Shown: positions 24,864-36,464, counted from the first letter of the stretch. The stretch: DNA of 39,816 bases from Burkholderiales bacterium (GCA_044445195.1 JBIODP010000001.1:1-39816); one strand, 5' to 3'. Program-made: numbers and translations. Notes: a model not told the origin generated them from the letters alone.

Positions 24864-27653
24864 ATGCGTGGGAGTATGGCGTACAAAATCGTTATACCAA
24901 GCCTGTATTGGTTAACTGGCATCTTGTCTTTTGCCACGGGTCACCATTTACTTGCTGCGTTTAATCAACCTCGCGACCGAGCGCAGTTATTATTCAGTGG
25001 CATTACTTTTTTGTCGGTGCTTCAAGCAATTTCTTTTATTTATACCTTGCAGGCAGTCAACATCGTTGAGTATGTCGATGCGCTCAGATGGAATATTGCG
25101 GCTACCCTCCTGTTAATGCTTTTGCTCCCTTGGTTTATCGCCCTGCTTACGGGAATAATCCCGCGCTCTTTTCTGCTGTGGTTCAGCGTGTTGCAAGTTG
25201 TATTTTTCGCGGTAAATTTGGCACAGCCGTACACTTTACAATTCGATCATTTAGATGGACTTCATACCCTCAACTTGCCATGGGGCGAACAGGTCACCCG
25301 CGGGCATGGGCACCCAGGTTTCGTGACATATGCAGTCATTTCTGTAGTGGCGTTGAATTTTGGCTTCACTTTATATGCCCTGGCAAGCGCATATCGTCGT
25401 GACCGCAAGCTGATGGACTTATGGATGCTGATCGCTTTCTGGCTGTATCTGCTCTGTGGAATTGAAGGCGTTCTTGCACGACTGTCTATCGTGGAATTCA
25501 TTGAAACCGGTCCGGTCGGCATCTTGGCAATGGTAGCGGTCATGAGCGCTGCACTAACCTTTGAAATGCAAAAGCGGGTACGTACCTCCGAGCGGCAATT
25601 CCGTTCCCTATTTGAAAATTCACCTACCGGATTAGTCGCCATTGATCCGGAAAGCCGGTGCATTGTGCAAGCCAACCGCATTGCACTGGAAATGAGCGGG
25701 TTTAATTCCGAAGAGATTCTCACCAAGACTGTTGCCGAGTTAACATACCCTGATGATTTGAATCAGTCGGAATACCGGCAATGCTACGAACAACTTTCAA
25801 GTGGGGTCATTGATCGCTTGTCTTATGAAAAACGGTTCCTCAGAAAAGATGGGAGTAGTTTTTTCGGACTAACGTCAATCTCAACTCTCAAGGATGAGCG
25901 CGGCAAGATTATGCGCTTCATTGGCAGCACCATTGATATTTCCGAACGCAAGGAGATGGAAGATGCTTTGCATGAAAGCGAGTTTCGATTTCGCACCATC
26001 ATTGAACAATCGCCTATCGGCATTGCATTTTCACGAGATGGAATTATGCTCGATGCAAATGAAGCCCTGTTGCAAATGTTTGGCCACAAAGATGTTGCAG
26101 AGGTGCGTGGACAACCCATAGTCAACCGGATTGCCCCACAGTGCCGGGCGGAAATTGAAGAGCGGATCAGAAAACGTTCTTTGGGTCAGCCAGTTGAAGG
26201 AACTTTTGAAACAATCGGTTTGCGTACGGACGGCTCACAGTTCCCATTACTTGTTTCGGTTAAACGCATCGTACTGAGTGATGGACCATTGACCTGTGCT
26301 TTTGAAATCGACATGACCGATAGTAAGGCGGCAGAAGAAAAGATCAAACATTTGGCTTTCTATGACCACCTCACCGATCTTCCTAACCGACTGCTTTTGC
26401 TCGATCGCCTCCAACAAGCAATGGCTTCCAGCGCGCGCAGCGGGAAACAGGGCGCACTGTTGTTCGTTAACCTGGACGACTTCAAATCGCTTAATGATAC
26501 CTTGGGTCATGCTGCGGGAGACTTGCTGCTGAAGCAGGTAGCGCGACGATTGACTTCGAGTTTGCGCGAAGGCGATTCAGTAGCACGGTTCGGTAGTGAT
26601 GAATTCGTCGTATTACTGCAAGACTTGAGTGGGCAGCTTATTGAGGCGGCGGAGCAAACAGAAATTGAATGTAATAAGATTTTTGATTCGCTCAAGCTAC
26701 CGTACCAACTTGGAGCACATGAATACCAGTGCACCATCAGTATTGGCGCAACCCTGTTCAAAGATCATCAGCAGACAAAAGAAGATCTGATAAAACAGGC
26801 TGACATCGCCATGACTCATGCCAAGAAGTCCGGGCGTAGCAAGCTGCGTTTCTTTGATCCTAAAATGCAGGCAGCTATTGACGCTCGTACAGCACTTGAA
26901 GGTGAACTACGTCATGCGCTTAAAAAAGAACAATTCCAGCTTCACTACCAAATCCAAATCGACAATTTTGGCCGTCCAATCGGAGCGGAGGCGCTTATCC
27001 GCTGGATACACCCTGAGCGCGGTTTGATTTCTCCCGCTCAATTCATTCCATTGGCAGAAGAAACGGATTTGATTCTGCCGATGGGGCAATGGGTGATCGA
27101 GGCAGCTTGCGCCCAGCTTAAGGCATGGGAGCGCGATGAAATGACACGAGACCTCGTTTTGGCGGTAAACATCAGCGCCAAGCAATTTTTCCAGGCTAAT
27201 TTCGTTTCTCACATTATGGCAACGGTGCATTGCCATAATATAAATTCCAATCTTCTCAAGCTTGAATTGACCGAAAGTATTTTGGTCGATGACATTGAAG
27301 GCACCATTTTAATTATGAGCGCATTGAAAAAAATCGGCGTCAGCTTCTCGCTTGATGACTTCGGAACAGGGTATTCATCCTTGCAATATCTTAAGCGGTT
27401 ACCGCTCGACCAGCTTAAGATTGACCAATCATTTGTACGCGACCTTGGCACCGATAGCAACGATGAAGCACTGGTGCGCACCATAATTTCAATGGCGCAA
27501 AGTTTGAATCTGGAGGTCATCGCAGAAGGCGTCGAAACCGAAAGCCAGCGGGAATTTTTGCTGAAAAACGGTTGCACCCGGTACCAGGGGTTTCTGTTTA
27601 GCAGACCATTACCGGTTGAACAATTCGATGCATTACTGAGCAAGGCTGCATAA
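24864..27653 (+). CDS. Membrane-bound c-di-GMP signalling protein: ~7 TM N-terminal domain, two PAS domains, GGDEF (GSDEF variant, RxxD I-site) and EAL
   Basis: Seven hydrophobic segments in aa 1-235. PAS blocks (FENSPTGL..., IIEQSPIGIAF...). REGDSVARFGSDEF at 26565-26606. EAL at 26988-26996, plus ELTES, DDFGTGYSS and KIDQSF. An alternative start is ATG at 24876. Confidence 0.9.
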   Translation: MRGSMAYKIVIPSLYWLTGILSFATGHHLLAAFNQPRDRAQLLFSGITFLSVLQAISFIYTLQAVNIVEYVDALRWNIAATLLLMLLLPWFIALLTGIIPRSFLLWFSVLQVVFFAVNLAQPYTLQFDHLDGLHTLNLPWGEQVTRGHGHPGFVTYAVISVVALNFGFTLYALASAYRRDRKLMDLWMLIAFWLYLLCGIEGVLARLSIVEFIETGPVGILAMVAVMSAALTFEMQKRVRTSERQFRSLFENSPTGLVAIDPESRCIVQANRIALEMSGFNSEEILTKTVAELTYPDDLNQSEYRQCYEQLSSGVIDRLSYEKRFLRKDGSSFFGLTSISTLKDERGKIMRFIGSTIDISERKEMEDALHESEFRFRTIIEQSPIGIAFSRDGIMLDANEALLQMFGHKDVAEVRGQPIVNRIAPQCRAEIEERIRKRSLGQPVEGTFETIGLRTDGSQFPLLVSVKRIVLSDGPLTCAFEIDMTDSKAAEEKIKHLAFYDHLTDLPNRLLLLDRLQQAMASSARSGKQGALLFVNLDDFKSLNDTLGHAAGDLLLKQVARRLTSSLREGDSVARFGSDEFVVLLQDLSGQLIEAAEQTEIECNKIFDSLKLPYQLGAHEYQCTISIGATLFKDHQQTKEDLIKQADIAMTHAKKSGRSKLRFFDPKMQAAIDARTALEGELRHALKKEQFQLHYQIQIDNFGRPIGAEALIRWIHPERGLISPAQFIPLAEETDLILPMGQWVIEAACAQLKAWERDEMTRDLVLAVNISAKQFFQANFVSHIMATVHCHNINSNLLKLELTESILVDDIEGTILIMSALKKIGVSFSLDDFGTGYSSLQYLKRLPLDQLKIDQSFVRDLGTDSNDEALVRTIISMAQSLNLEVIAEGVETESQREFLLKNGCTRYQGFLFSRPLPVEQFDALLSKAA

Positions 27654-31309: not shown

Positions 31310-31678
31310 TTACGCGCCGACTAATTTTTTAAAGGTCGCCAGGACGGCATCGCCCTTGAATGGCTTGACTATCCAGCCCTTGACGCCGGCAGCCTTGCCG
31401 CGCTCTTTCATGAGCGGTGAGTTGACCGTGGTCAGCATGATGATGTTGACAGTGCTGTTGCCGAGTTCGTTGCGAATTTTTTCGGCCATGGTCAGGCCAT
31501 CCATGATCGGCATGTTGACGTCGCTCAGCACGAGCTTGATATTGCTATCCGCCTGGAGTTTCGCCAGTCCATCGCGCCCATCGATGGCGCATGTTACGGC
31601 AAGACCATTTTTCGTCAGAAAATCGCCCACTTCGTTGCGAACGGTGCTGGAGTCGTCGACCACCAGTATTTGTGCCAT
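31310..31678 (-). CDS. cheY: Single-domain CheY-like response regulator
   Basis: D8-D9, D53 in LSDVNMPIMDG, T83/T84 and K105 in VKPF. All receiver active-site residues are present. Confidence 0.9.
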   Translation of the reverse strand: MAQILVVDDSSTVRNEVGDFLTKNGLAVTCAIDGRDGLAKLQADSNIKLVLSDVNMPIMDGLTMAEKIRNELGNSTVNIIMLTTVNSPLMKERGKAAGVKGWIVKPFKGDAVLATFKKLVGA

Positions 31679-31697: not shown

Positions 31698-32672
31698 TTA
31701 AAATAATTCCAATTCGCCGGACTCGAACCAAGCTTCGACCGAAACCTGGTTTACTTTGAAGTCGTCCGGAGACCAATTCAGATTGAAAACAAACCGTTGA
31801 TAAATGGTCAGCGGCAGCACATCCTTGTCGTTTTTTGCGTTCAGCGTATATTTGAAACACAACTGCGGATCTTCGGAACCGAATGAAATATATCGATGCA
31901 AATGATTGACAATAATCGGGACCTGCGACAGTTGCGCAATGTTATCAGAATGCGAGATATAGCGGTTTTTGAAGGTGCCCCAAATAAGATTCGTGATTTC
32001 CCCCAAAATATTGTTCAGGTGCCGAAAATCGTTGTTATTGTCGGACGCAGTGTGTGTTCTTTCGGCACGGACCAGATGCAGCAACGGCTCCTCCTCGACT
32101 TGCAGCATCATGTAACCCCGGCACCAACTGCTTTCGAGTGGGATCATGGTAAAGATCTCCCCGAAAATAAGCCTGTCCCGGACCAGATACGGCGCCTCGA
32201 CATCGATACCCATATCATTGAACTGGCTTTCCAGCGCCGTTATCGTCAGCTCCACGATTCCGCGAATCAGGGCGTTAGGGTAGACCTGGCTAAATATGCT
32301 GGCGTCTATGGCGCTGCGCAAACTGGCGATGTCTGCAATCGTGTAGGAGGCGCTGAATAATTTTCTATCTTTCCCGGAAAGATTATCCGGATAAGGGATT
32401 TCTTCCCGACGCAAAAAAATCGGCAATTCCGGACGAATGCGATGAATCTCGCGCGCTAACGCGATGCCCCCATTGTCGTTGCCGCCATAGCTTTCCGAAA
32501 GCAATATTCCACCCAGATCTATGTTGGATTTCAATACCGGTAATACGTTTTCCTCATGAACCTTAAGGCCCACCAAATTGTGGGTGTCGCAAAATAGCTT
32601 GATCTGGTCATAACATTCGGTATTGCTGTCCAAAACAAGCACCTTGCTGACCAGTGTTGCTCGATCGTTCAT
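31698..32672 (-). CDS. Pseudo-receiver domain fused to a CheX-like phosphatase domain
   Basis: The N-terminal ~125 aa follow a receiver-like beta/alpha pattern (VLVLDS...GGILLSES...PIFLRR) but lack the phospho-acceptor Asp. The C-terminal half carries GEITN-x23-P, resembling the CheC/CheX ExxN-x22-P motif. The protein ends in SGELELF. Confidence 0.7.
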   Translation of the reverse strand: MNDRATLVSKVLVLDSNTECYDQIKLFCDTHNLVGLKVHEENVLPVLKSNIDLGGILLSESYGGNDNGGIALAREIHRIRPELPIFLRREEIPYPDNLSGKDRKLFSASYTIADIASLRSAIDASIFSQVYPNALIRGIVELTITALESQFNDMGIDVEAPYLVRDRLIFGEIFTMIPLESSWCRGYMMLQVEEEPLLHLVRAERTHTASDNNNDFRHLNNILGEITNLIWGTFKNRYISHSDNIAQLSQVPIIVNHLHRYISFGSEDPQLCFKYTLNAKNDKDVLPLTIYQRFVFNLNWSPDDFKVNQVSVEAWFESGELELF

Positions 32673-32688
32673 ACACTATTCCTTCTTT

Positions 32689-33243
32689 CTAAAAAAATTC
32701 CAGTTCCCCGGTAGCTGCTTCCTCATCGTCTGCCTTTACAGAGAAATCCAGGTCGGCATGATCGCAAACGCATAGGCTGACAGGAAACGAAAAGCTATTG
32801 TTGAGATTGACCGTGAAATGCCGAATATGACCGCAGCCCAGCACATTCAGGTAAGACGCGCAATTTTTGTCGATGATGTTGGGCGTCGACATGTCGATGT
32901 GGGAAAAGAACTGGCCTAAATCGCGGTTGAATATGCCACAGCAAATATTTCCGTATTCGCCGACGGCGTCATAAAACGATTGTTCGTTCATATCTTGCAT
33001 CCGCATGCCGTTGAGCCTGGCGTAGTGCTCTTTCGTCGCATCGTCCGGCGTAAAATAAATCAGGATCATCAACCGGAACAGATGCGATGAAATGGTCAAG
33101 ATGGCGATCCTGGTTTCTTTTATGGCGGACATTTCATTGAAGGCAGAAATGTCGCAGGTATCCTCCGCAGATTTTTGCAGGCTTGCTTTGAGGGCCTGTG
33201 CCAGTAAATAGTCGAAGCCGTCGCGCGCGCTTTTGCTGATCAT
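32689..33243 (-). CDS. CheX-like CheY-P phosphatase
   Basis: AVGEYGNICCGIFNRDLGQFFSHIDMSTP aligns with Thermotoga CheX AIGELGNMTAGKLAMKLEHLGKHVDITPP (from memory). Ends in TGELEFF. Confidence 0.7.
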   Translation of the reverse strand: MISKSARDGFDYLLAQALKASLQKSAEDTCDISAFNEMSAIKETRIAILTISSHLFRLMILIYFTPDDATKEHYARLNGMRMQDMNEQSFYDAVGEYGNICCGIFNRDLGQFFSHIDMSTPNIIDKNCASYLNVLGCGHIRHFTVNLNNSFSFPVSLCVCDHADLDFSVKADDEEAATGELEFF

Positions 33244-33255
33244 GGTTGTCGCCGG

Positions 33256-33975
33256 TTATGCAGCAAGCGCATCTTTGGTTTTTTGATTGGTCAACCCCAG
33301 TCCGACGATGGCGCTGGTGATCATCTTGCCCCCGGCCTGCAGGTCCTGGAAGGTGGTTGTCGAGATCAGGTCGTTTTGAAAGAGATTGCTGCGATAATCG
33401 TTCGACAATTTTTCTGCGCGATTGGCCAAGGTTCTCACCTCGTTCGCCACTACCGCGAAACCGTGCCCATGCACGCCGGCCCTGGCGGCTTCGATCGAGG
33501 CGTTGAGGGCCACAATCACCACTTGCTTGACGATCAATGCAAACTCATCGTTTTTAGCCTGTATTTCCCGATTGTGCGTGATCAACATATTCATGTTGGC
33601 ATGCCAGCGCTCAAAAGTCTTGGTCAAGTCAAGCAACCGATCGATTGTTTCCGTCGAAAAATCACAATGCCGGATGATCGCTGTTTTAATAGCCGTATTG
33701 CTTTCCGTGACTTGGCCGATCAAATTCTCGTGATCTTTCTTCAGCCGATGGCTGCGGGCATCGGACGCGGTTTTTTCCTGCTCAAGCAATTGTTGGCATT
33801 GCTCTATTTGAGTTTGCATTTCCTGCAATGTCAGTTGCCAATTCCGTTCGGCTGTCTGTGCCTTTTCAAGTGGGATCATGGCGGAGATGGTTTGCTTGAG
33901 TGTGCGGATTTTCCACCACATGACGCCGCAGCAGCCGAAGAGCGTCAGCAATAAAATCGAGATTGCAATGACCAT
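33256..33975 (-). CDS. Mini methyl-accepting-chemotaxis-like protein: one N-terminal TM helix plus a truncated MCP signalling domain
   Basis: ALNASIEAARAGVHGHGFAVVANEVRTLANRAEK matches the invariant MCP hairpin tip (LALNAAIEAARAGEqGRGFAVVAdEVRkLA). Only 239 aa. Confidence 0.8.
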   Translation of the reverse strand: MVIAISILLLTLFGCCGVMWWKIRTLKQTISAMIPLEKAQTAERNWQLTLQEMQTQIEQCQQLLEQEKTASDARSHRLKKDHENLIGQVTESNTAIKTAIIRHCDFSTETIDRLLDLTKTFERWHANMNMLITHNREIQAKNDEFALIVKQVVIVALNASIEAARAGVHGHGFAVVANEVRTLANRAEKLSNDYRSNLFQNDLISTTTFQDLQAGGKMITSAIVGLGLTNQKTKDALAA

Positions 33976-34007: not shown

Positions 34008-36464
34008 TTACGCTGTGTGAAAATTGGCATCGCCAAGGCCTGAGCCTTCTCCGGGGTTGCGGTCGGCTCCGGGCCCGGTATGTTGCCCGGAGGTGGCAGC
34101 AGCGGCGGCAGGCACATCGCCGCCGTCAATGTATGCGGCCATGCTTTCAGGTAGAAAAACAAGGATTTCAAATTGTCGGAACTCGGCGCCGATCGCCTCA
34201 TCGGTGAAGCGGATTTCCACTTTTCCCTGTTCGCGAGCAACGAAATCCTGCACAGCATCCATGCCGACGCCGCGCCCGGATACGGCAGTAACTTTATCGG
34301 CGGTTGAAAAACCGGGTCGGAACACGAGGCGGGCGATATCTTCATCGCTCATTTTGTCTGCGGTGGCGTCAAGCCCTTTTTCGATGGCTTTCTTGCGAAT
34401 GCGGCGCAGAGCCAGGCCGGCGCCGTCATCGCGCAGGGCGATTTGAAAAAAACCGTCAGCGGTACCCGCCCGGATGTGGATCGTGCCGACCGCCGGCTTG
34501 CCTGTTGCGATTCGTCTTTGCGCAGTCTCAATGCCGTGGACCACGGCATTGCGGATCAGGTGCATAAATACGTTCTTCAGCATGCCGCTGGCCTGATTAT
34601 GCACCACGTAGCCGCGGTCTTCGATGGTGACGAGCGGCGTAGCCTTGCCAAGTTCCTCGGCAAGTGCCGGCAGTGAAGCGAGCACACTGCCCAGAGTGTC
34701 GGCGATGCGTTCGGTTCCCAGCAGGCGCAGCGTCCTGCGCACAGCATCGCGCGCGGAAATCAATTCGTGCAGATTGGCGGTATTGACTGTCTCCAGACGA
34801 TGCAGGCTATCCTGTATATGCTGCTTGTCAACCAGCAGATAACGTTCCACACTGCCGCGGCGACCGGGCCCTCTGCGGCCCAATGTGACTTCATTGATCC
34901 TGACGTAACGCTCGAGTAATGCCTCGACCCCTGCCAACTCGTCCATCAATGCAGCCTGATCCCAGACAACGGTGGTGTCCGGCATGCGCAATTGCTCGTA
35001 ACTTTGTTCAGCCTGATGGACGATATTGGACAGATGCAGCAGCCCGTACGTGCGGCTATTGCCTTTGATCGTATGCATATTGCGGAACAGTTTCGCGATG
35101 GCGAATTCATGCCGCTCGGCGTGCTGTCCGATCAGCAGCGCATTTTCCTCGATGAACCTGACGGAGCCGGCGATGAATTCGTGGAACTTTTCCTGGTCGA
35201 CCGCCAGTATTTCACCGATAATCTCCAACTCGCGTTTCTGGTCGTTGGCCTCAGCTGCCAGCTTGCGTAATTCTGTGACGTCGCGCACGCATAACATCAA
35301 ACGCACGATCTTGCCGGCATCGTCGGTAATAGGCGACCAGTTCAAATCCAAAATTTTCATGCTACGGTCCGGCATGGTCTTTTCTATCTCACCGACCATC
35401 AAGTGCTCATTGAACTGAAAATTCATGAAGTCTTCGCCAATGCAAGCGCTGGCTGCGGCATCCACTTGCGACAGGGTGTCGGCGCCCAGATTCGTCTTGG
35501 AAAATACCAAGTCCACCAGGTCGCGCCCGGCAATATCCCCAGTCTCGAAAACCGTTTCGAGATAAGCGGAGTATTCCGGGTGAATTCTGTTGCCTTCCGC
35601 TACCGTCAAGATACCTTGAGGAATGTTTTGCAGCATGGTCTGCATGTCGGTAGTCTTTTGTTTGAGTTGAGCCGAACTCTCTTCAATTTTTTCAATCATG
35701 CCGTTGAAGGCAACAATTGAGCGTCCGATTTCATCGTTCCGGCCGACGGGAACCCGGCGGGTGAAATCCTGGCTGGAAGCGATTTCAGTCATCATCATTT
35801 GCATTCTGCTGATGGGGCCGATGATTGCGCGATAGAGAAGCATCCCGATCGCGGTCAGGAAAATGACAGCGATGACGGTGACGACCGAGATCGTCGTCGC
35901 AGTGGTCGCCATATTCCGGTTCAATGCTTCTATGGCGTTATCCTTGCTTCGGTTTTTTTCCACTCTCAGCGTCGTTACGATGACTTCAAGTTCCGCCTGG
36001 TATTGAACCACATTCCCAAAAAATGAAGCCTGAGCAAGCTCAGCCTTGCCTGCCAGTTTGTTTTTTACGGTTTCGTCGATTGCGGTCAAATAATTGGCGA
36101 GACTTTCCTTCGCCTGCTGTACCAAACCGCGTTGCGCATCGCTGTCAGCGCCCTGGGATTGCAGATCGATGGTTTTTCGTAAAAGGGTTTTCTTTGCGCT
36201 CAGGTTTTCCATCGCTTCGGTCGCCATGTTACCGGCAGGCGCGTATACCACGGTCATTACCGCCAGTTGCACATCCTTGAGTTGCGATACAAGGTCAGCC
36301 GAGGCGAGCGCGCTGGGCACCACGCCTTCCGTTACGGTTTTTACATCGGACGCGCTTCTGCGGGACTGGAAAACGGCGTAACCGCCAATAGAGGAGAGAA
36401 TGAGGAAGGTCAGGATGACCAAGAGTGTGATGCGATGACGAATGCTCATGTCCCGACCTTCCAT
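34008..36464 (-). CDS. Transmembrane CheA-like histidine kinase: periplasmic helical sensor, HAMP, PAS-like, Hpt (P1) and CheA-type ATPase (P4), with no CheW-like P5 domain
   Basis: - TM segments at aa ~12-32 and ~188-212.
- HAMP: GPISRM...GRNDEIGRSIVAFNGM.
- Hpt: FRNMHTIKGNSRTYG, with the His464 codon at 35073-35075.
- CheA-type boxes: HLIRNAVVHGIE, DDGAGL, FRPGFSTA, SGRGVGMD.
- Only ~45 low-complexity aa follow the ATPase.
- The start may be ATG at 36449, which has a GGAAGG SD sequence. Confidence 0.85.
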   Translation of the reverse strand: MEGRDMSIRHRITLLVILTFLILSSIGGYAVFQSRRSASDVKTVTEGVVPSALASADLVSQLKDVQLAVMTVVYAPAGNMATEAMENLSAKKTLLRKTIDLQSQGADSDAQRGLVQQAKESLANYLTAIDETVKNKLAGKAELAQASFFGNVVQYQAELEVIVTTLRVEKNRSKDNAIEALNRNMATTATTISVVTVIAVIFLTAIGMLLYRAIIGPISRMQMMMTEIASSQDFTRRVPVGRNDEIGRSIVAFNGMIEKIEESSAQLKQKTTDMQTMLQNIPQGILTVAEGNRIHPEYSAYLETVFETGDIAGRDLVDLVFSKTNLGADTLSQVDAAASACIGEDFMNFQFNEHLMVGEIEKTMPDRSMKILDLNWSPITDDAGKIVRLMLCVRDVTELRKLAAEANDQKRELEIIGEILAVDQEKFHEFIAGSVRFIEENALLIGQHAERHEFAIAKLFRNMHTIKGNSRTYGLLHLSNIVHQAEQSYEQLRMPDTTVVWDQAALMDELAGVEALLERYVRINEVTLGRRGPGRRGSVERYLLVDKQHIQDSLHRLETVNTANLHELISARDAVRRTLRLLGTERIADTLGSVLASLPALAEELGKATPLVTIEDRGYVVHNQASGMLKNVFMHLIRNAVVHGIETAQRRIATGKPAVGTIHIRAGTADGFFQIALRDDGAGLALRRIRKKAIEKGLDATADKMSDEDIARLVFRPGFSTADKVTAVSGRGVGMDAVQDFVAREQGKVEIRFTDEAIGAEFRQFEILVFLPESMAAYIDGGDVPAAAAATSGQHTGPGADRNPGEGSGLGDANFHTA

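Follow-up and report, generated by a model that had tools for sequence, protein, structure and literature searches.

The 39,816-nucleotide stretch of Burkholderiales bacterium DNA analysed here (GCA_044445195.1, JBIODP010000001.1:1-39816), which we call the window, carries on its minus strand a gene for a kinase that joins a CheA-type transmitter to a transmembrane (TM) sensor of its own and lacks both the P2 and the P5 domain. The gene heads a five-gene operon that also encodes a chemoreceptor-tip protein, termed here the mini-MCP, two CheX-like proteins and a CheY-like receiver. An earlier note on this sequence had singled out the kinase; the finding goes beyond it, to a widespread kinase class and an accessory operon built around the receptor-tip mini-protein.

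The open reading frame (ORF) 34008..36464 (-) was confirmed and its translation is 818 amino acids (aa) long. The start codon is probably the second ATG, at 36449 (MSIRHR; 813 aa; gene 34008..36449 (-)), because a Shine-Dalgarno sequence, GGAAGG, is located 7 nt 5' of it and all 39 aligned homologues have their N-terminal start at MSIRHR. The features of the kinase are listed below; Pfam bit scores were judged against each family's gathering cut-off, and the AlphaFold2 model was built on 40 homologues (predicted local distance difference test score, pLDDT, of 74.6).

34008..36449 (-): gene of the sensor CheA-type kinase, 813 aa when read from ATG 36449; the ORF as called mechanically reaches 36464
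36363..36437 (-): TM1 (aa ~10-34), from hydropathy and an AlphaFold2 helix
35910..36362 (-): periplasmic four-helix-bundle sensor, 4HB_MCP_1 (aa ~35-185), Pfam 29.4 bits against a cut-off of 27 at aa 5-160, with AlphaFold2 helices
35829..35909 (-): TM2 (aa ~186-212), hydropathy maximum 2.73
35670..35828 (-): HAMP (aa ~213-265), Pfam 37.2 bits against a cut-off of 25 at aa 209-262; the AlphaFold2 monomer model is poor here
35253..35669 (-): family-specific PAS-like domain (aa 266-404), AlphaFold2 PAS topology with the fold at aa 285-395 (pLDDT ~83); weak Pfam match to PAS_4 at aa 361-400 (E 0.008)
34884..35252 (-): Hpt / CheA-P1-type domain (aa 405-527) with the predicted phospho-His464 in FRNMHTIKGN, Pfam 28.9 bits against a cut-off of 24.6 at aa 447-507, hhalign 98.7%, AlphaFold2 helix bundle at aa 397-527 (pLDDT ~90)
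34827..34883 (-): conserved, disordered Gly/Arg-rich linker (aa 528-546, 19 aa, with LGRRGPGRRG) in the P2 position, from alignments and AlphaFold2
34716..34826 (-): short, putatively P3-like helical hairpin (aa 547-583), AlphaFold2 helices at 547-559 and 565-581, hhalign 84.7%, Foldseek
34131..34715 (-): CheA-type P4 ATPase (aa 584-778) with the N, G1, F and G2 boxes all conserved, AlphaFold2 alpha/beta fold, Pfam HATPase_c 31.6 bits against a cut-off of 26.4 at aa 629-763, with NCBIfam, phmmer, Foldseek and conservation
34011..34130 (-): disordered Gly/Ala/Pro-rich tail (aa 779-818; disordered over 781-818 in the AlphaFold2 model), from alignment and AlphaFold2; unconserved save for the last ~6 residues in some lineages

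The domain order that had been read from the translation (TM1, periplasmic helices, TM2, HAMP, PAS, Hpt, helix pair, ATPase, tail) is borne out by Pfam, hydropathy and AlphaFold2, with each element where it had been placed. The structure model reproduces it, with a long helical periplasmic bundle at its N-terminal side, and hydropathy finds two TM segments (aa ~10-34 and ~184-219). Pfam returned no match to H-kinase_dim, P2/CheY-binding, CheW or HisKA in the kinase, and the neighbouring KdpD, serving as the HisKA control in the same run, scored 63 bits.

As had been claimed, the catalytic core belongs with CheA and not with HisKA-type kinases. A phmmer search of the PDB paired aa 601-772 with E. 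coli CheA (1e-29) and T. maritima P4 (9e-27), against only 0.004 for the best HisKA-type kinase; together with the blank Pfam result these scores rule out a HisKA-type catalytic domain. The NCBIfam CheA models match P4 alone (7e-44 and 5e-37) and fall far under their full-length cut-offs because the remaining CheA parts are missing from the kinase. Foldseek places the model on CheA P4 structures with TM-scores of 0.73-0.77 and a root-mean-square deviation of ~3.4 Å, and the match that it gives to the P3P4 structure 4xiv covers 259-283 alignment columns. The Hpt assignment also withstood profile searches: in addition to the Pfam match, hhalign pairs the family Hpt profile with one built from nine canonical CheA P1 domains (98.7% probability, E 1.6e-16), and His464, Lys467, His483 and Glu486 line up with E. 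coli CheA His48, Lys51, His67 and Glu70. In 135 diverse members of the class described below, conservation reaches at least 90% both in the N, G1, F and G2 boxes and in FRNMHTIKGN, which marks these PAS-Hpt-P4 proteins, on the strength of their sequences, as working enzymes and not relics. The domain matches lie far beyond chance, and hundreds of species conserve them.

Between Hpt and P4, the position of P2 is occupied by only ~20 disordered residues. A canonical P3 is an H-kinase_dim hairpin of ~60-70 aa with two helices of ~26-28 aa each. The linker of ~60 aa that had been suggested to form a P3-like helix pair does contain a hairpin (aa 547-583), seen in the AlphaFold2 model and in an hhalign comparison with nine canonical P3 regions (84.7% probability, E 6.6e-6, a match partly carried by the start of P4); we call it P3-like with moderate confidence, and a CheA P3 is about twice as long. 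When the protein is set against the CheA definition (MiST; Berry et al. 2023), P1 and P4 are found, whereas P5 is missing and the protein is neither sensor-free nor soluble. Set against a classical sensor kinase, it has the TM sensor and HAMP and lacks a DHp/HisKA H-box domain before the catalytic domain. The kinase is therefore hybrid-like, departing from the CheA definition in two features and from the classical sensor-kinase definition in one (DHp).

The earlier note's statement that P2 and P5 are lacking is confirmed by more than the Pfam scan. A hidden Markov model (HMM) trained on four CheW and nine P5 sequences, which recovers 9/9 canonical control loci, finds no CheW/P5 match in the whole 39.8-kb window, and over ~170 family loci it matches in 2 only, both on the opposite strand. 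Nor is a P5 domain hidden by a frameshift at the 3' end, an error the note had allowed for. The next gene, which encodes the mini-MCP, starts 32 nt past the kinase stop codon, all 40 aligned orthologues terminate in a short unconserved tail past P4, and the residues after P4 number a median of 13 in 150 representatives of 50%-identity clusters; with the HMM result, these rule out a hidden P5. The kinase itself ends 40 aa past P4, in its disordered tail. Its best 120 database relatives range in length from 787 to 885 aa, with almost all at 800-828, and have the same Pfam content. The C-terminal residues of the tail (window 34011-34030, -) are semi-conserved in Oxalobacteraceae/Neisseriales-type orthologues (...FHTA, ...FQAA, ...PQVA, ...LRVV). 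A conserved C-terminal docking peptide on the kinase was considered and rejected, as the x[VA][AV]-COOH ending is lineage-specific at best and many other orthologues end in LQLDAMAD or similar.

The kinase belongs to a large class in which the transmitter is fixed and the input is exchangeable. We searched 1.84 billion cluster representatives with the core from Hpt to the C-terminus (E<=1e-30; 50%-identity clusters) and obtained 1,242 clusters, of which the best 150 were inspected. The core sits at the extreme C-terminus in 150/150, behind N-terminal regions of 37 to ~1,480 aa. The class sharing this transmitter numbers up to ~1,200 such clusters, and its inputs vary. Pfam scans of 17 members identified 4HB/TarH-HAMP, NIT-HAMP, 7TMR-DISM, GAF, Reg_prop/Y_Y_Y beta-propeller and Pkinase-AAA_16-GAF inputs, and no CheW or H-kinase_dim match in any of the 17. 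Counted over 120 near-full-length representatives, TM-like segments number two in 70 proteins and three to eight in ~30, and are absent from 11. The PAS-like domain (aa 266-404) is present in 137/150 representatives, the other 13 being short fragments, and in 0/9 canonical CheAs; the conserved transmitter of the class is therefore PAS-Hpt-P3'-P4, where P3' denotes the short hairpin. A cofactor or redox role for Cys341, Cys392 and His295 of the PAS-like domain was dropped, these residues being invariant in orthologues but not conserved class-wide. Within the linker (aa 528-546; 34827-34883, -), the basic, Gly-rich sequence LGRKGPGRRG is kept even in distant class members, and such conservation inside a disordered segment suggests a candidate binding or regulatory site.

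To place the class relative to CheA, P4 domains of 50 class representatives and nine P5-bearing CheAs (Ralstonia, E. coli, Azospirillum, Phaeobacter, Sinorhizobium, a Pseudomonas plasmid ChpA-like protein, Nostoc, Deinococcus and Acetoanaerobium) were joined in an unrooted neighbour-joining tree. The two groups split in 196/200 bootstraps, and mean P4 identity is 39% inside the class, 43% among the CheAs and 31% across. By this sequence tree the class P4 domains are a clade apart from the nine sampled CheAs; as the tree is unrooted and CheA classes are thinly sampled, it shows a distinct clade and not which form is ancestral.

Downstream of the kinase come four more genes in the same orientation, spaced 12-32 nt apart, which encode the following proteins:

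33256..33975 (-): mini-MCP, 239 aa, Pfam MCPsignal 59.7 bits, AlphaFold2 pLDDT 83.7, Foldseek
32689..33243 (-): small CheX-like protein, 184 aa, Pfam CheX 27.4 bits, E-x2-N, ending GELEFF-COOH
31698..32672 (-): large CheX-like protein, 324 aa, Pfam CheX 35.4 bits, a putative pseudo-receiver plus a CheX domain with E-x2-N, ending GELELF-COOH
31310..31678 (-): CheY-like single-domain response regulator, 122 aa, Pfam 77.6 bits, with D8, D9, D52, T83 and K105 conserved

These partners qualify the description of the kinase as wired like an ordinary membrane sensor kinase. That description is right about the sensor input, but it overlooks the co-transcribed tip protein, the two CheX-like proteins and CheY, as well as the constancy of the PAS-like domain in the transmitters of a large class. 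Domain scans and the CheW/P5 HMM found no CheW, CheR or CheB in the five-gene operon, which thus does not have the composition of a chemosensory pathway in the scheme of Wuichet & Zhulin (F1-F17, ACF and Tfp), where CheA, CheW and MCP cluster, usually with CheR and CheB.

The mini-MCP opens directly with a TM helix anchor, without a periplasmic domain. AlphaFold2 predicts one helix of ~130 aa leading to a chemoreceptor tip, ALNASIEAARAG..GFAVVA.EVR, with its hairpin turn, followed by a return arm of 72 aa. All 16 significant PDB fold matches to this model are chemoreceptors, and it matches Tsr and the receptor tip of the E. coli core signalling unit with a TM-score of 0.76 and 30% identity (Foldseek). 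The distance from the tip to the C-terminus is held to 69-76 aa in 76 homologues, and the membrane-proximal stalk is variable in sequence. The length of the mini-MCP bears no obvious relation to the kinase input, being 233-242 aa with HAMP, 7TM or soluble kinases.

The two CheX-like proteins are very divergent from known CheX (E 1e-3 to 0.02; the Pfam cut-off is 27 bits), yet their E-x2-N motifs (GEYGN and GEITN) align with those of T. maritima CheX and CheC-like structures. We take E-x2-N to be the CheX/CheC phosphatase active site. Both proteins combine it with the CheX fold and so are putative CheX/CheC-type phosphatases. A nearly invariant G-E-L-[ED]-[LFM]-F-COOH ends both the small (78 loci) and the large (45 loci) protein, encoded here at 32689-32706 and 31698-31715 (-), and the GELE[LFM]F ending recurs in CheX-like proteins of modules that accompany 7TM or soluble kinases. 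It has the look of a docking motif common to both proteins, with CheY, the kinase and the mini-MCP as candidate partners; we know of no characterised CheX protein with this C-terminal peptide. The N-terminal ~100 aa of the large protein (32370-32672, -) are receiver-like (KVLVLDS ... GGILLSESYGG) and without an acceptor Asp, and this part appears to be a pseudo-receiver fused to the CheX domain. The large gene is present in only about half of orthologous operons. The CheY-like receiver has as its best PDB match 'Chemotaxis protein CheY' (4H60/4HNR, 6e-24), with E. coli CheY at ~1e-13.

In a scan of one genome per GTDB species, at least 581 species have a kinase relative. The 80 best of these were retrieved; all carry full-length orthologues (59-81% identity), and they are essentially all Betaproteobacteria, including Paraburkholderia, Herbaspirillum, Pandoraea, Caballeronia, Herminiimonas, Formivibrio, Andreprevotia, Sterolibacterium and others. 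In Caballeronia insecticola RPE67 the orthologue is BRPE67_DCDS11810. The accessory gene set accompanies the kinase in ~80/84 related loci in two gene orders: kinase-miniMCP-smallCheX-REC in 34/84, the same order plus the large CheX-like gene in another 34/84, and the permuted kinase-largeCheX-REC-miniMCP-smallCheX in 7/84, the rest being truncated or minor variants. Flanking genes vary between genera, so the kinase and its partners are a self-contained conserved module. Public labels of the kinase relatives include 'HAMP domain-containing protein', 'Hpt domain-containing protein', 'ATP-binding protein' and 'chemotaxis protein CheA'.

The mini-MCP/CheX-like/CheY set also stands behind a 7TMR-DISM kinase in Aquabacterium and a HAMP-only kinase in Methylococcales. 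On one metagenome contig (L089 7001-13018; relative P0124), a soluble 2,005-aa protein with Ser/Thr kinase, AAA_16 STAND ATPase, GAF, PAS, Hpt and P4 domains is followed by a mini-MCP that keeps its TM anchor, two CheX-like proteins ending GELEMF, and CheY. Among metagenome loci with >=3 kb of flank, about half carry the module, and these are mainly closer relatives. Orphan class members include a NIT-HAMP kinase, a beta-propeller kinase and one that adjoins flhB/flhA/flhF/fliA. The last is found in a Rubrivivax metagenome-assembled genome (L087 1-6689; relative P0125), where the kinase is divergent from flhB, flhA, flhF, a 276-aa gene and fliA, and an MCP gene lies further on; this neighbourhood hints at a connection of the class to flagellar motility. 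A plasmid of Nostoc sp. C052 (L096 915-3580) carries a divergent trio labelled 'response regulator', 'chemotaxis protein CheX' and a 538-aa 'ATP-binding protein', adjoining a canonical cheA-cheW-mcp-cheB-cheR cluster, and this trio might be a distant analogue of our module.

We consider it likely that the system as a whole works as a sensor-controlled CheA-type autokinase that feeds a dedicated CheY and is reset by CheX-type phosphatases. The kinase would be a dimeric inner-membrane sensor with a CheA-type transmitter, whose periplasmic four-helix bundle senses a ligand or other stimulus. The signal would then travel through TM2 and HAMP to the PAS-like domain, joined by a continuous helix to the P1-type Hpt, so that the sensor would govern whether the P4 ATPase, hanging on the flexible Gly/Arg linker behind the short P3-like hairpin, can phosphorylate His464. 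From His464 the phosphoryl would pass to Asp52 of the co-encoded CheY-like receiver, and the two CheX-like proteins would strip it off fast, probably docking via their common GELE[LFM]F peptide, while the mini-MCP would most likely serve as a membrane scaffold or allosteric partner of the kinase/phosphatase core. The architecture, the homologies, the conserved catalytic residues and operon and the exchange of inputs are results of the sequence analysis; from them we infer which way the signal flows, that CheY is the substrate, that the CheX-like proteins are phosphatases docking by their peptide, and what the mini-MCP does.

Several of these features bear on how the pathway could be controlled. 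As there is no CheW, P5, CheR or CheB, array coupling would be unneeded and methylation-based adaptation would not occur. Signals would enter via the kinase, since inputs are swapped on the kinase and the mini-MCP is without a sensing domain; judged by its sequence, the mini-MCP cannot sense outside the cell. The continuous PAS-Hpt helix of the AlphaFold2 model and the conserved flexible LGRKGPGRRG linker suggest that the kinase is controlled through presentation of P1. CheZ has a C-terminal CheY-binding peptide, and by likeness to it GELE[LFM]F may be a CheY docking peptide. The mini-MCP could be a scaffold joining kinase and phosphatases, a PAS/P3'-binding activator replacing P5/CheW, or a bridge to a canonical array. 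Two dedicated phosphatases favour a fast behavioural response over gene regulation, and our best guess at the cellular output is fast motility control.

Some observations weigh against this reading. AlphaFold2 models HAMP and the inter-domain geometry of the kinase badly. The helices of the P3-like hairpin are 13 and 17 residues long in that model, about half the CheA P3 length. Autophosphorylation, phosphotransfer and phosphatase activity are predicted from homology. The near-universal receptor-tip protein in the orthologous group suggests that the kinase is perhaps not fully autonomous. Furthermore, about half of distant class members with sufficient flanks are without nearby accessory genes, so the module is not obligatory for the kinase core. 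It is extremely improbable that the kinase is a decayed or mis-assembled CheA, silent in signalling, whose P5 was lost to truncation, a frameshift or a sequencing error: the sole support for this is the missing P2 and P5 and the low-complexity tail, whereas relatives occur in at least 581 species, the 80 retrieved loci are full-length at 59-81% identity, the catalytic boxes and P1 network are conserved, the post-P4 tail has a median of 13 aa in 150 representatives, and the downstream gene begins 32 nt past the stop. There is likewise hardly any chance that an ordinary HisKA-type sensor kinase or a phosphorelay Hpt protein has been mistaken for a CheA-like one. While the 4HB-TM-HAMP-PAS half resembles many classical sensor kinases, with partial NCBIfam matches to WalK, PnpS, NarX and BaeS over aa ~100-400 only, there is no HisKA match, the ATPase scores (1e-29 to CheA against 0.004; NCBIfam CheA 7e-44 and 5e-37) go the other way, and the Hpt lies N-terminal to the ATPase as in CheA, not behind a receiver as in ArcB and BvgS.

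The remaining alternatives concern what the mini-MCP does. It is possible, if doubtful, that the kinase is receptor-dependent without CheW, with the mini-MCP tip as obligatory activator of P4 and the PAS-like domain or P3-like hairpin in place of P5/CheW; the N-terminal sensor would then merely modulate contact with the tip, a proposal that overlaps with the sensor-controlled autokinase and differs from it in what controls the kinase. The mini-MCP does keep a chemoreceptor tip sequence and a return arm of strictly 69-76 aa, it accompanies the kinase in ~80/84 loci and also kinases with unrelated inputs, including a soluble one, and the PAS-like domain is class-universal and absent from canonical CheA. 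However, the mini-MCP is missing from the vicinity of about half of the distant members whose flanks suffice, and these still keep the PAS-like domain, and the known partners of chemoreceptor tips have SH3-like CheW/P5 folds, not PAS. In a related and unlikely proposal, the PAS-Hpt-P3'-P4 kinases and the mini-MCP would form a minimal CheW-free receptor-kinase machine, the PAS-like domain or truncated P3 binding the tip directly and a membrane-anchored tip lattice clustering kinase and phosphatases; it would be a surviving intermediate between two-component sensors and arrays, or an array radically streamlined into a modular transmitter that accepts any sensor. Less plausible still is a plug-in to a canonical array, in which the mini-MCP would join ordinary receptor trimers and bind CheW/CheA encoded elsewhere, and the module would inject into, or read from, the main flagellar chemotaxis pathway. 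Its tip is near canonical MCP tips (Foldseek matches to Tsr and the E. coli core-unit tip, TM-score 0.76, 30% identity), it presumably keeps most of the residues that make trimer contacts in Tsr, and one class member adjoins flhB, flhA, flhF and fliA. Yet CheW-like genes are absent from the window and present in only 2 of ~170 family loci, the module's own CheY and phosphatases argue for a separate pathway, and the ~130-aa stalk (~19-20 nm, predicted) is presumably shorter than typical proteobacterial array heights. The sensor-controlled autokinase is our preferred reading.

The kinase shares with canonical CheA a P1-type Hpt with the His/Lys/His/Glu network, the P4 boxes and a hairpin in the P3 position, and its operon holds partners from the chemotaxis repertoire (CheY, CheX, MCP tip). 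Unlike the CheAs of E. coli and T. maritima, it has no P2 or P5, carries its own TM sensor, HAMP and PAS-like domain before P1 and has a P3 equivalent of about half length, in an operon without CheW, CheR or CheB. A 2023 survey of 13,673 CheAs found P1, P3, P4 and P5 in all and a sensor domain lacking (PMC10782961); its sample followed the MiST definition of CheA, which would leave out the P5-less class. A CheA-type kinase with N-terminal TM helices is known in A. brasilense CheA1, whose membrane-anchored 'TMX' isoform is dispensable for chemotaxis; CheA1 retains two P5 domains and functions together with CheW and receptors (PMC6759762). It shares the N-terminal TM helices with our kinase and differs in its two P5 domains, and in domain scans no 4HB-HAMP-PAS input module shows up in its TM region. 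MAC1/MAC2 proteins unite receptor and kinase in one polypeptide so that a CheW bridge is unneeded; they are experimentally uncharacterised, have a chemoreceptor-like coiled coil within the kinase and are associated with CheB/CheR-related domains (bioRxiv 10.1101/2022.05.07.491037). Our kinase likewise combines sensing and kinase in one polypeptide, but through a classical sensor input and a CheA core, with the tip in a separate mini-protein and CheB/CheR absent from the operon. Pfam gives no MCPsignal match in the kinase polypeptide, and an identity as a MAC protein, or as a hybrid or unorthodox kinase, was rejected on domain content and order.

Kinases of the EnvZ/NarX/BaeS type share the input logic of TM1, periplasmic helical sensor, TM2, HAMP and PAS, whereas the kinase here has its predicted phospho-His on an Hpt bundle instead of a DHp helix, a CheA-type P4 and no HisKA. 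The mini-MCP model matches only chemoreceptor cytoplasmic domains, such as the tips of Tsr (1QU7) and Tm14 (3G67), yet it lacks their ligand-binding domain, HAMP and methylation region and has a return arm of only ~72 aa. With CheX (1SQU/1XKO) the CheX-like proteins share E-x2-N, one adding a pseudo-receiver and both the GELE[LFM]F peptide. In openly accessible full texts we found no description of a P5-less sensor-fused CheA or of such an operon, and the class with its accessory operon is apparently new to the literature.

The class breaks on both counts the textbook and survey rule that CheA never has its own sensor and always has a P5/CheW link, while still keeping a stripped-down receptor tip, dedicated CheX-type phosphatases and CheY. 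It thereby offers a simpler system for asking what the receptor tip does to a kinase beyond the share of P5/CheW, how access of P4 to P1 is regulated and how chemotaxis pathways are tied in evolution to ordinary two-component systems. With its swappable inputs it may also be a natural chassis for coupling arbitrary sensors to fast outputs of the CheY type.

In the window, the operon lies between kdpDE and housekeeping genes. Directly upstream of the kinase, on the same strand (36536-39810, -), are kdpE (232 aa; NCBIfam KdpE 3.9e-106) and kdpD. The kdpD ORF extends to 39810, nearly the window end, and its KdpD domain begins at Pfam profile position 39, so the 5' end of kdpD may exceed the window. 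The end of kdpE is 72-87 nt from the kinase start codon, with one sigma-70-like match in the gap, and read-through transcription from kdpDE into the kinase operon is possible. About 4 kb past the operon end, at 24864-27653 (+), lies a gene for a 929-aa PAS-PAS-GGDEF-EAL protein of cyclic di-GMP turnover, and the Azoarcus orthologue has a GGDEF-EAL gene nearby too; this proximity may be coincidence or a functional link.

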